64,000 nt of DNA, taken from NCBI GenBank assembly GCA_003554845.1, contig PWHK01000020.1, positions 6,895-70,894 on the forward strand, written 5' to 3'. The stretch comes from Candidatus Aenigmatarchaeota archaeon. Lineage in GTDB: Archaea > Aenigmatarchaeota > Aenigmatarchaeia > PWEA01. Position numbers and translations under genes: made by a program. Numbering within the stretch: the first letter of the stretch is position 1; each line of letters opens with the position of its first letter. The notes beneath the pieces are model-generated. The model did no database searches and was not told where the DNA came from. It saw nothing but the letters and a program-made list of their open reading frames with translations. This document shows, in pieces, positions 22,612 to 61,280 of the stretch.

Positions 22612-22618
22612 TTTAAAT
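22612..22618 (+). promoter_or_regulatory. TATA-like box (TTTAAAT) about 24-30 nt upstream of the tRNA
   Basis: Sequence atttaaatta seen directly upstream of the tRNA 5' end at archaeal promoter spacing. Confidence 0.4.
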
Positions 22619-22641
22619 TAGCTTTCGTTAAAGATAGGTAC

Positions 22642-49060: not shown

Positions 49061-49358
49061 AAGGGGTATAGAGCTTTCAATAAGGTTAATAGTTATTCTG
49101 CTTATCTCCACAATAGTACTTCTAGCAGTTCTCGTATTTTTCGGCAATGTGTGGGATACAAGTCCATTTGAACATGCCATGGGAAACTTAACGGAACAGC
49201 AGTCAGATCTAGGCAGTAAAAATCTCGGTGGTTTTGGAAGGATGGTGCGCCTGCCGGGATTTTCAGAGACATTGGAAAGATCAATGCTTCCTTTGAACCC
49301 GGGCTTCGAGCATGGGAGGCTCGAGTCCTACCAGACTAGACCACAGGCGCATATTTAG
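49050..49358 (+). CDS. pilin-like protein (102 aa)
   Basis: MLDKRG|IELSIRLIVILLISTIVLL. Overlaps the previous gene by 11 nt. Confidence 0.45.
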   Translation: MLDKRGIELSIRLIVILLISTIVLLAVLVFFGNVWDTSPFEHAMGNLTEQQSDLGSKNLGGFGRMVRLPGFSETLERSMLPLNPGFEHGRLESYQTRPQAHI

Positions 49359-59640: not shown

Positions 59641-59976
59641 CTAATTGAGGCATGCAGGACAGTTTTCGGGTCCACCTGGAACAATATCGGAACAGTCATG
59701 CCATTCGCCACCGACCTGTACACATACATCGGCATTGGAAACAGGAGAATCTTCGGGTGCATCGCAGCTAAGGCCTGTTAGTTCACTTGACCAACTGCCT
59801 TCGTTGCAGTACTGAAAAGTAGAGACTGGACCACAACACATATTTATCTTGTTTCTGTCTTCTATGGCTCCTGTCTCAAAACCTCCCATAAAGAAGGCAA
59901 CCAGTGCTAGAAGAACTATGACGGCTACTGCAAGTATTACAAGCATGTTTACAGGAAGTGATATACCCTTTTTCAT
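59641..59976 (-). CDS. class III signal peptide (pilin-like) cysteine-rich protein, distal paralog 1
   Basis: MKKG|ISLPVNMLVILAVAVIVLL. Eight Cys in the C-terminal domain. Confidence 0.5.
   Translation of the reverse strand: MKKGISLPVNMLVILAVAVIVLLALVAFFMGGFETGAIEDRNKINMCCGPVSTFQYCNEGSWSSELTGLSCDAPEDSPVSNADVCVQVGGEWHDCSDIVPGGPENCPACLN
59700..59810. repeat. 111-nt segment identical to 60098-60208 (inside the paralogous pilin-like genes)
   Basis: Seen directly: identical string gccattcgccaccgacctgtacacatacatcggcattggaaacagg ... ccttcgttgcagt in both genes. Confidence 0.8.
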
Positions 59977-60038: not shown

Positions 60039-60380
60039 CTAGTTCATACAGGCAGGACAATTACCTGGCCCTCCGGGTATAACAGACGAACAGTCGTGCC
60101 ATTCGCCACCGACCTGTACACATACATCGGCATTGGAAACAGGAGAATCTTCGGGTGCATCGCAGCTAAGGCCTGTTAGTTCACTTGACCAACTGCCTTC
60201 GTTGCAGTGGTTAAAGGTTACTACAGAACTACAGCATCTACTTACAACAGTCTGCTCGTCCACAGCTCCTGTCTCGAAGCCTCCCATAAAGAAGGCAACT
60301 AGTGCTAGAAGAACTATAACGGCTACTGCAAGTATTACAAGCATGTTTATAGGAAGGGTAACACCTTTTTTTGAATTCAT
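60039..60380 (-). CDS. class III signal peptide (pilin-like) cysteine-rich protein, distal paralog 2
   Basis: MNSKKG|VTLPINMLVILAVAVIVLL. Shares identical DNA blocks with 59641-59976. Confidence 0.5.
   Translation of the reverse strand: MNSKKGVTLPINMLVILAVAVIVLLALVAFFMGGFETGAVDEQTVVSRCCSSVVTFNHCNEGSWSSELTGLSCDAPEDSPVSNADVCVQVGGEWHDCSSVIPGGPGNCPACMN
60098..60208. repeat. second copy of the 111-nt identical segment
   Basis: See 59700-59810. Confidence 0.8.
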
Positions 60381-60486
60381 TCAACCACTAGACTAAATCT
60401 ATCGACATGTTTATTTAAAAGTTTCCTTTGTAGGTGCTCAATGAGAAGTATTCAATAGTTAAATACCTTGAAAATAATAATGTACT

Positions 60487-60693
60487 GTGGATGGGGGGTC
60501 AGGGGTCTAGCCTGTCTCTTTAAGGCGTGGAGCGTGCGTTCCATAAGGTCCTTGAGGCCGGAGGAGCGTATGTGAGACGGACGGTAAAACACACGGGAGA
60601 AATCCGCGAATCGCGCCGTTTGGACAAGGCAACGGTGAGGAAGGTAGCCATGACCCTAATAACTTCCCTCCACACTTTTCCCAACCGAAAAAC
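60487..60693 (+). ncRNA. GC-rich structured RNA candidate, possibly signal recognition particle RNA
   Basis: A ~200-nt island of high GC in an AT-rich genome. TATA-like aaaataataa about 20 nt upstream. Contains AGGCCGGAGGAGCG and GGAAGGUAGCC segments resembling SRP RNA helix-8 strands. The 5' GCGUGGAGCG can pair with 3' CCCUCCACAC. Confidence 0.35.
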
Positions 60694-60719
60694 TTTTATA
60701 TATCACACCAAGAGAGTGA

Positions 60720-61280
60720 ATGGCGATGATAAACGAACAGATAGATGAACCACTTATAAGAGAAGTTATGTGCAAGAATCTGAACTATGCAGGACCCGAG
60801 GATTCTGTCTGTGATATAGCCAAGACCCTGAGGGAAGGAAACAGAGGATCGGTTGTAATAAAGAAAGACGATGAAGTTCTCGGAATAATAACAAACTCGG
60901 ACATAGTAAACAAGTTTGTTGTAGGCGGAAAGGGAAACAAGGCCAAGGAAATAATGACAACCAACATGGTAACCATATCACCCGATATGGACATACAGGA
61001 CGCTGCAATGGTCATGGTAAAAAAGGGAATAGAAAGACTTGTTGTAATGGAAGGAGACGAAGTTTTAGGTGTAATTTCCCAGAACGATATCATGGAGGTA
61101 AGACCAAGCCTCTACCTGGATATATCACAGGGAATAAAGTTCGGTGCTGAAACAACAGATATGGACTTTGAAAGTATGGATGTTGGGCAGTGTGAATCCT
61201 GTGAAAACTACTCCGAAAATCTAAAGGAGGTCAATGGGAACCTTGTATGCCCTGAGTGCCAGGAAGAAGAGGGCATTTAG
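60720..61280 (+). CDS. CBS-domain pair protein with C-terminal zinc ribbon
   Basis: Two CBS repeats (VVIKKDDEVLGIITNSDIV; VVMEGDEVLGVISQNDIM) and C-terminal CESC ... CPEC. TATA-like ttttatatat just upstream. Exact start uncertain. Confidence 0.7.
   Translation: MAMINEQIDEPLIREVMCKNLNYAGPEDSVCDIAKTLREGNRGSVVIKKDDEVLGIITNSDIVNKFVVGGKGNKAKEIMTTNMVTISPDMDIQDAAMVMVKKGIERLVVMEGDEVLGVISQNDIMEVRPSLYLDISQGIKFGAETTDMDFESMDVGQCESCENYSENLKEVNGNLVCPECQEEEGI

Follow-up and report, generated by a model that had tools for sequence, protein, structure and literature searches.

A GC-rich island in an Aenigmatarchaeota genome as a candidate structured RNA of soda- and salt-lake DPANN archaea

We analysed 64,000 nucleotides (nt) of contig PWHK01000020.1 from a Candidatus Aenigmatarchaeota archaeon. 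This whole stretch is the window, and positions are its own unless a homologous locus (L-numbers) is named. A GC-rich island occupies part of a 340-nt intergenic gap between a divergent pilin-like gene on the minus strand and a CBS-domain gene on the plus strand. The initial annotation read the island as a structured RNA gene, possibly for a reduced signal recognition particle (SRP) RNA. Does the island encode an RNA and, if so, which one? Our analysis indicates that 60487–60679 of the plus strand is probably a previously unclassified gene for a structured non-coding RNA (ncRNA), trans-acting and the probable core of an RNA-protein particle. The RNA family is absent from Rfam 15 and is shared by two DPANN phyla of soda and salt lakes.

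Covarying helices and frozen loops

The island stands out in composition, as the initial annotation had claimed. Positions 60487–60672 are 57.0% G+C, compared with 42.6% for the window. In a sliding scan of the 64 kilobases (kb), 0.009% of 186-nt frames attain this value, and 60482–60678 is the sole region where such frames reach at least 56%. The flanking spacers have 28% (60381–60486) and 36% (60673–60719) G+C. The island is also more conserved than the adjoining gene: it is about 82% identical among seven Aenigmatarchaeota, while the CBS protein is only 57–75% identical. In alignments of the gap, the outer spacer is unalignable apart from the TATA boxes.

We identified 15 distinct island sequences in total, from soda-lake Aenigmatarchaeota and Nanohaloarchaeota-like metagenome-assembled genomes (MAGs). 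An RNAalifold consensus from 14 of these sequences has 40 pairs in eight helices, and the pairs were recounted independently. Standard pairs fill 95% of the sequence-by-pair cells, compared with 30–46% when the 3′ partners are slid by 1–3 columns. In the same 14-sequence alignment, 21 pairs have changes on both sides, compared with 6–9 in the slid controls. The observed covariation measures were not attained in any of 500 column shuffles. A covariance model built from the alignment (R1) matches 60485–60675 at 194.9 bits; it finds one copy per locus (157–195 bits) and no further match in 202 kb.

We assign the RNA to the plus strand because many G-U pairs of the conserved helices would be A-C mismatches on the other strand and because the plus strand folds better. 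The fold z-score of the window copy is −1.2 on the plus strand and +0.1 on the minus strand, so that the plus strand alone does better than its shuffles.

The consensus fold is a long rod (P1–P4) that leads to a three-way junction bearing a variable hairpin A and a short P5 hairpin, with hairpin C at the side (Table 1). The terminal helix P1 is present in nearly all homologues despite differing sequences (for example, GACAGGGGAG/UUCCCCUGUC in L011), and the duplex energy of native 5′/3′ combinations averages −15.8 kcal/mol, compared with −11.8 for non-native combinations. P2 is GGCC/GGCC in L027 (U-A to C-G). In P3, three of the eight pairs change on both sides (C-G to U-A in six sequences, G-C to A-U in two). 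P4 changes from C-G to U-A in six sequences and from A-U to G-C or C-G in two. Both-sided changes affect six of seven pairs in the base stem of hairpin A and three of four in the P5 stem (A-U to C-G in four sequences).

An alternative register of P4 was also noted (columns 45/136 of alignment A4; about 60528 and 60613). There, the usual U-G wobble becomes C-A in L013, L017, and L028. U-G and C-A are isosteric if the A is protonated, which hints that a specific wobble geometry is required, for example at a metal or tertiary-contact site.

The single-stranded elements behave in the opposite way. The 21-nt P5 loop has the consensus CNGUAAAACRCACGKGWGAAN (GUAAAACACACGGGAGAA), with 15 of 21 columns invariant across two phyla, and has no internal Watson-Crick potential. 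The loop of hairpin C (RAGGAAGNUA) has 8 of 10 invariant columns; its stem varies mainly one-sidedly, with a single doubly changed pair. Hairpin A, on the other hand, has no invariant column among 43, and its tip is swapped for unrelated sequence of different length in L011, L025, L028, and all Nanohaloarchaeota-like members. Compensatory changes thus keep the helices paired as their sequences vary, and the loops and junction strands stay fixed; a coding or random region would show the inverse. On inspection, the alignments show no conserved complementarity by which the conserved loops could form pseudoknots with other conserved strands. K-turns, H/ACA pockets, and a hammerhead core were also considered for the internal loops and junctions, and none fits the consensus.

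The same evidence bears on two further readings, a spacer that is GC-rich by chance and a gene for a small protein, to which we give next to no credence. A 73-amino-acid open reading frame (ORF) does overlap the island. The initial annotation had thought this ORF spurious, and relatives indeed show it broken: 10 of 15 sequences have another triplet in place of the start codon (GCA, GCG, GTA, GTC), indels are 1–2 nt long, and most relatives have in-frame stops. This destruction of the ORF, together with covariation far above the controls, refutes the chance and coding readings, and the position of the island at the G+C extreme of the window likewise speaks against them.

Table 1. Features of the RNA locus, in window coordinates
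Feature	Position	Strand	Remarks
RNA gene, predicted transcript of ~190 nt including terminal T-run	60487–60679	+	model R1; G+C maximum of window
TATA box TTAAATAC of RNA gene, preceded by A-rich stretch resembling a B recognition element (BRE)	60459–60466	+	sequence, conservation
P1, 5′ strand GUGGAUGGGGGG	60487–60498	+	pairs with 60663–60673
P1, 3′ strand CUUCCCUCCAC	60663–60673	+	pairs with 60487–60498
P2, GGUC / GACC	60504–60507 / 60652–60655	+	100% of cells paired
P3, GCCUGUCU / GGAC-A-AGGC (bulged A)	60510–60517 / 60622–60630	+	8 pairs, 97% of cells paired
P4, GGCGUGGA / UCGCGCC	60524–60531 / 60611–60617	+	6 pairs, 100% paired
Hairpin A	60534–60571	+	base stem covaries; tip varies in sequence and length
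P5 hairpin, 4-base-pair stem CGGA (60578–60581) / UCCG (60603–60606)	60578–60606	+	stem 100% paired
P5 21-nt loop CGGUAAAACACACGGGAGAAA	60582–60602	+	near-invariant
Hairpin C, stem of 3–4 base pairs, 10-nt loop GAGGAAGGUA at 60637–60646	60633–60650	+	conserved loop
T-run directly 3′ of P1, likely archaeal terminator	60676–60679	+	read from sequence
Separate BRE/TATA element CTTTTATATATC of CBS gene, outside RNA	60693–60704	+	sequence, conservation
CBS-domain gene	60720–61280	+	right neighbour; ATG at 60720
Small pilin-like gene	60039–60380	−	left neighbour of island
73-amino-acid ORF	60527–60748		overlaps island; spurious

Gene limits, distribution, and neighbourhoods

The TATA-like box named in the initial annotation is present, and a second box lies downstream of the RNA (Table 1). 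The first box is 21–28 nt 5′ of the first paired base and is kept in all Aenigmatarchaeota homologues, in which the remaining spacer has diverged. The box is spaced as at both tRNA genes in the window, where it occupies −30 to −23 relative to the first base, and we therefore predict a transcription start at about 60489. Most homologues have a T-rich or pyrimidine-rich run 3′ of P1, and in the window the T-run at this place is likely an archaeal terminator. The 3′ end would then fall at about 60675–60679, so that the gene is predicted to stop short of 60693, the limit initially proposed. A scan for sigma-70 promoters and intrinsic terminators was uninformative for an archaeon, and ARAGORN detected no tRNA or transfer-messenger RNA at the island.

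By generic criteria, the island thus appears to be an independent structured ncRNA gene, with promoter and terminator as read from the sequence. Conservation, covariation, a putative promoter and terminator of its own, and a broken ORF all bear out the initial proposal of a structured RNA gene.

Homologous loci were collected from contigs that encode nine CBS orthologues and by an exact two-block pattern search (GTAAAACNCACG, a gap of 30–60 nt, GGAAGNTAGCC), with both blocks invariant among seven sequences. Identical copies of the CBS protein occur on contigs of Kulunda soda-lake sediment metagenomes, and orthologues at 49–75% identity belong to Candidatus Aenigmatarchaeota wherever they are named. 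Six of the nine CBS-orthologue contigs share one gene order (AMP-phosphorylase-like gene, Alba, pilin-like gene or genes, gap, CBS), with a gap of 320–360 nt upstream of CBS. The more distant relatives L014, L015, and L016 have a short gap and no island ahead of the CBS orthologue, and R1 is also negative there.

We searched one genome per GTDB species (185,579 species) and obtained 13 pattern matches, 12 of them in DPANN or uncultured archaeal MAGs: five Aenigmatarchaeota, one ‘Nanobdellati archaeon’, Candidatus Nanohalarchaeota QJJ-7, two Candidatus Asbonarchaeaceae, and three ‘uncultured archaeon’. The thirteenth match, in a bacterium (Anaerolineaceae), lies inside a gene and was set aside as chance. 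A pattern scan of JGI metagenomes returned soda-lake sequences already collected and one chance match (L037), and the same scan of IMG/VR returned no viral contig with the RNA. The true distribution is probably wider than the 15 sequences.

In Nanohaloarchaeota-like genomes, the RNA gene has other neighbours. It lies among tRNA genes (three loci), directly upstream of a TraB/PrgY-family gene, and in L018 roughly 5 kb separate it from the 16S rRNA gene, on the 5′ side of that gene. Because the neighbourhood differs in this way, the RNA gene is best regarded as autonomous and not as an appendage of the CBS gene.

These arrangements also bear on whether the RNA acts in cis on the CBS gene as a leader, for example a riboswitch or an attenuator. 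In favour of a leader, every Aenigmatarchaeota locus with the RNA has it immediately 5′ of the CBS gene and in the same orientation. We consider a leader very improbable: the T-run and a separate conserved BRE/TATA element lie between the RNA and the CBS ATG, the CBS orthologues of L014, L015, and L016 do without the RNA, and in the other phylum the gene downstream is of the TraB family, with tRNA genes nearby. Since CCGAAAAACTTTTAAGTAT is kept in relatives about 20–25 nt ahead of the CBS ATG, the CBS mRNA is predicted to be leaderless, with its own promoter.

Further features of the neighbourhoods were recorded. The downstream gene in Nanohaloarchaeota-like genomes encodes a TraB/PrgY/GumN-family membrane protein on the strand of the RNA (L018, 3937–5118, minus strand; L027, 2985–4133, plus strand), and the two proteins are 58% identical. 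In L018, the RNA gene lies downstream of a TrmY-like RNA methyltransferase gene (PF04013). In two Nanohaloarchaeota that are less closely related (Nanosalina VS9-1, L039; and L040), the TraB gene is present but not the RNA, and their 42 kb contain no SRP or RNase P RNA. On the other side of the island in the window, the pilin-like gene is one of two tandem paralogues on the minus strand (59641–59976 and 60039–60380; 111 and 113 amino acids). Both have an N-terminal class-III (type IV pilin-like) signal sequence with a hydrophobic helix and a near-identical Cys-rich C-terminal half. Neither has a Pfam match, and relatives have one or two copies.

Three independent Logan assemblies (SRR490134, SRR9330139, and SRR9330141) each have a contig (L003, L004, and L005) that begins at window position 60639, within the RNA gene and 81 nt ahead of the CBS start. 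The 31-mer AGGAAGGTAGCCATGACCCTAATAACTTCCC from this position is identical in the window and in a co-occurring species (L008), and the preceding base differs. The contigs probably break there at a branch of the de Bruijn graph that results from cross-species conservation of the RNA.

Known-family searches and possible roles

Rfam 15 was scanned against the whole window at the gathering score, against slices of 271–451 nt at E≤10 (window 60350–60800; L018, 5080–5350; L030, 1510–1780), and against seven homologue loci (39.6 kb). The slice scans list chance matches of about 9–20 bits. No Rfam 15 family matches the RNA at the gathering score or at E≤10, and the scans return only tRNAs and chance matches. 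Models without a match in this sequence include those for SRP RNA (Archaea_SRP, Bacteria_small_SRP, Bacteria_large_SRP, and others) and for RNase P RNA (RNaseP_arch, RNaseP-T, bacterial A/B, and nuclear). The slice 60350–60800, on which the initial annotation had proposed that covariance models be run, thus has neither an SRP nor an RNase P match at E≤10. A C/D-box or H/ACA guide RNA was rejected as a candidate: the 14–15-sequence alignments contain no conserved C (RUGAUGA), D (CUGA), or ACA box, and no Rfam snoRNA model matches over the RNA. The 3′ ends of homologues read CACAC, GUCAUC, GUGGG, and UUAAC, and CUGA occurs in some members only. A search of the text of 8 million papers did not find the core sequences, and in literature on RNase P or SRP RNA of these phyla we found nothing that describes this RNA.

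Helix 8 is the most conserved element of SRP RNAs and forms the SRP54 site, with a GNAR tetraloop and symmetric and asymmetric loops. Archaeal SRP RNA is about 300 nt long, with an Alu domain (helices 2–4) and helix 6. Its gene, the 7S RNA gene, adjoins tRNA and rRNA genes in some methanogens. If the RNA were a reduced SRP RNA, its rod and three-way junction would be equivalent to helices 5, 6, and 8, and its SRP54 site would be unconventional. The order of rod, hairpin, and hairpin fits this reading, the gene in L018 is likewise near tRNA and rRNA genes, and by eye the window copy (AGGUCCUUGAGGCC...GGAGCG) is slightly like helix 8 of Candidatus Nanohalococcus occultus, taken from a reverse-complemented published sequence (...GUCAGGCCUUGACGGGAGCAGCC...; PMC10266531).

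We nevertheless regard an SRP RNA as very unlikely, and the initial proposal did not hold up. No SRP model matches any member tested. The two strings that had been compared with the strands of helix 8 are both present (AGGTCCTTGAGGCCGGAGGAGCG at 60546–60568 and GGAAGGTAGCC at 60639–60649), and neither is a helix-8 strand. The first (AGGUCCUUGAGGCCGGAGGAGCG) lies in the tip of hairpin A, a segment without an invariant column among 28; it occurs only in close relatives of the window and is replaced in other members. The second (GGAAGGUAGCC) is conserved, in 10 of 11 columns, but as the loop and 3′ stem of hairpin C. The conserved loops contain no GNAR tetraloop and no paired symmetric and asymmetric loops. 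An Alu domain is missing, and the RNA, about 190 nt long rather than 300, is closed into a single rod by direct pairing of its 5′ and 3′ ends. The initially proposed pairing of GCGUGGAGCG (60525–60534) with CCCUCCACAC (60666–60675) gives way to other, covarying partners for each strand: UCGCGCC (60611–60617) for the former and the 5′ end GUGGAUGGGGGG for the latter.

A profile of the family (nhmmer) finds no match in E. coli 4.5S, human 7SL, or Nanohalococcus SRP RNA (scores in 1,600 shuffled controls of the search were at most 6.6 bits). In addition, canonical SRP RNA is known in Nanohaloarchaeota: the cultivated Candidatus Nanohalococcus occultus has an ordinary SRP RNA of 301 nt, recognised by Rfam at E=2e-32 (PMC10266531). 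The relatives of half the family members are therefore not short of an SRP RNA.

The preferred reading, a trans-acting and previously unclassified RNA, draws on the contrast between helices and loops. Because the helices change sequence freely and the loops and junction stay fixed between two phyla, the covarying helices would serve as a scaffold, and the 21-nt loop, the 10-nt loop, and the junction strands would serve as recognition or tertiary-contact surfaces. With such an anatomy, the RNA probably works in trans and would form the stable core of an RNA-protein particle whose partner is highly conserved. Our most plausible guess, offered as a lead, is a partner from tRNA or translation biology, because the gene lies in tRNA clusters in Nanohaloarchaeota-like genomes and the loop is A-rich and T-loop-like (GUAAAAC...GAGAA). 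In its A-richness, the P5 loop is like loops that make T-loop or A-minor contacts.

Several points weigh against this reading. The fold energy of the window copy by itself is unremarkable (z = −1.2), and the stem of hairpin C shows little covariation. The transcript ends are inferred from sequence only, and the function is inferred from anatomy alone. Since sequences were collected by an exact pattern, the restriction to halophilic DPANN and the invariance of the two blocks are partly built in. A drastically diverged SRP or RNase P RNA is possible, given that the searches covered the window and the homologue loci.

A regulatory RNA that acts in trans, either as a base-pairing small RNA or as a decoy that uses its Shine-Dalgarno-like loops (GGGAG, GAGGAAGG) to titrate an RNA-binding protein or an RNA rich in pyrimidines, is a rather unlikely alternative. 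Both conserved loops are purine-rich and exposed, and the gene appears to have its own promoter and terminator. Loops that are identical across two phyla on an elaborate covarying scaffold of about 190 nt are, however, atypical of fast-evolving base-pairing small RNAs, and the variable base of loop C (G, C, or A) disrupts a GGAGGU-type match.

Proximity to tRNA genes raises a further candidate: the RNA could be the RNase P RNA of these organisms, or its relic, so drastically reduced or rearranged that Rfam models fail to reach it. The size is close to that of the minimal type-T RNase P RNA, and the gene lies inside tRNA clusters in three loci. Loop C starts RAGGAA, as does conserved region I (CR-I, GAGGAAAGUCC). 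The 21-nt loop (GGUAAAAC...GGGAGAA) resembles by eye nucleotides 227–251 of E. coli M1 (ACGGUAAACUCCACCCGGAGCAAGG) and B. subtilis GGUAAACCCCUCGAGCGAGAAACCC; these two reference sequences were checked only for length (377 and 401 nt) and motif positions. Reduced RNase P RNAs have also been reported for a parasitic nanoarchaeon (PMC4919917).

We judge this identity unlikely. At thresholds that list chance matches of 9–10 bits, no Rfam RNase P model appears in the window, L018, or L030. The RNA has no ACAGAA...GGCUUA (CR-V, ACAGAAnnnGGCUUA) and no distant complement for the long-range P4 helix of RNase P, and the bases after RAGGAAG pair locally, with those just upstream. In the two reference sequences of E. 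coli and B. subtilis, the family profile has no match even at E≤1000. The resemblances themselves are short stretches rich in purines, and their order is not that of RNase P. Mappings made by eye to RNase P RNA, colinear or circularly permuted, were tried and abandoned as mutually inconsistent and contradicted by the covarying helices.

RNase P may in fact be unneeded, because the promoter boxes of the tRNA genes appear to be placed for a start at the mature 5′ end. Relative to that end, TATA-like boxes occupy −30 to −23 in the window tRNA genes (22612–22619 and 49380–49373), and an A/T-rich box has the same place in about 10 of the 14 tRNA genes of the Nanohaloarchaeota-like loci L018, L021, and L027. 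This placement suggests that tRNA transcription is leaderless and starts at the first tRNA base; if so, RNase P is possibly dispensable in these lineages. Nanoarchaeum equitans, which is not known to have RNase P, transcribes its tRNAs from the first base.

The tRNA-Gly(CCC) gene of the window (49350–49240, minus strand) appears to encode its CCA and to have an insertion of about 30 nt in the T-loop (UUCAAA / GGAAGCAUUGAUCUUUCCAAUGUCUCUGAA / AAUCCCGG) that is probably a non-canonical tRNA intron. ARAGORN gives it odd coordinates (49263–49346), and it scores below the gathering score of the Rfam tRNA model.

A more specific form of the tRNA lead is that the RNA represents a new class of tRNA-binding RNA, in which the 21-nt loop (GUAAAAC...GGGAGAA) would act as a T-loop-type platform for the tRNA elbow. 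RNase P, T-boxes, and the ribosomal L1 stalk all dock the tRNA elbow via interdigitated T-loops, and the authors of that comparison expected further cases (PMC4810234). We hold this version to be a long shot. Such an RNA could have arisen independently, or it could be a remnant of RNase P RNA in lineages whose leaderless tRNAs need no 5′ cleavage.

New structured RNAs of such size that combine a covarying multi-helix scaffold with loops held fixed between phyla are seldom found in Archaea. Those already known (rRNA, tRNA, RNase P, SRP, and guide RNAs) all serve core jobs. Because the tiny genomes of DPANN archaea keep little beyond essentials, yet the RNA is conserved in two phyla, it likely matters to their biology. 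If it is a remodelled RNase P or SRP RNA, it would show how far those universal RNAs can shrink; otherwise, it defines a new RNA-protein particle. In addition, the RNA supplies a family that Rfam-type annotation currently misses.

Comparison with known RNAs

Archaeal SRP RNA (RF01857) is, like this RNA, stable, GC-rich, independently transcribed, and in some genomes near tRNA or rRNA genes. The two also share a long terminal rod that leads to a junction with two hairpins in the order of helices 6 and 8. This RNA differs in that it is about 110 nt shorter and lacks a model match, the helix-8 motif, and an Alu domain.

RNase P RNA (archaeal types A and M and the minimal type T; RF00373 and RF02357) is similar in size, in its type-T form, and likewise has frozen purine-rich single strands on a covarying scaffold. 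In this comparison, RAGGAA corresponds to the start of CR-I, and GGUAAAAC corresponds to GGUAAAC of the region that forms the tRNA-elbow T-loops (PMC4810234). Unlike RNase P RNA, this RNA has no model match, no CR-V, no long-range P4 helix, and no colinear conserved regions.

Orphan ‘high-GC’ archaeal RNAs (for example HgcC, RF00062) are also independent and structured, and they too were picked out as G+C islands in AT-richer genomes. Such RNAs reportedly emerged from G+C screens of AT-rich archaea (Thermococcales and Methanococcales) by Klein, Misulovin and Eddy in 2002. This RNA has no sequence or model similarity to HgcC-type RNAs, is longer, has a three-way junction, and belongs to DPANN archaea.

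The remaining comparison is with Candidatus Nanohalococcus occultus, in which four abundant small RNAs of 115–322 nt are unmatched by Rfam (SVXNc_nc0001 and nc0003–nc0005; PMC10266531, Supplementary Table S3) and no RNase P RNA was reported (PMC10266531). The family profile does not match nc0001, nc0004, or nc0005, and none of our sequence was recognised by eye in nc0003. This RNA and the four orphans have in common that they are unclassified small RNAs of related DPANN lineages. The orphans are strongly expressed and indicate that genomes of this kind contain abundant RNAs beyond Rfam; unrecognised RNAs seem to be common in that group.

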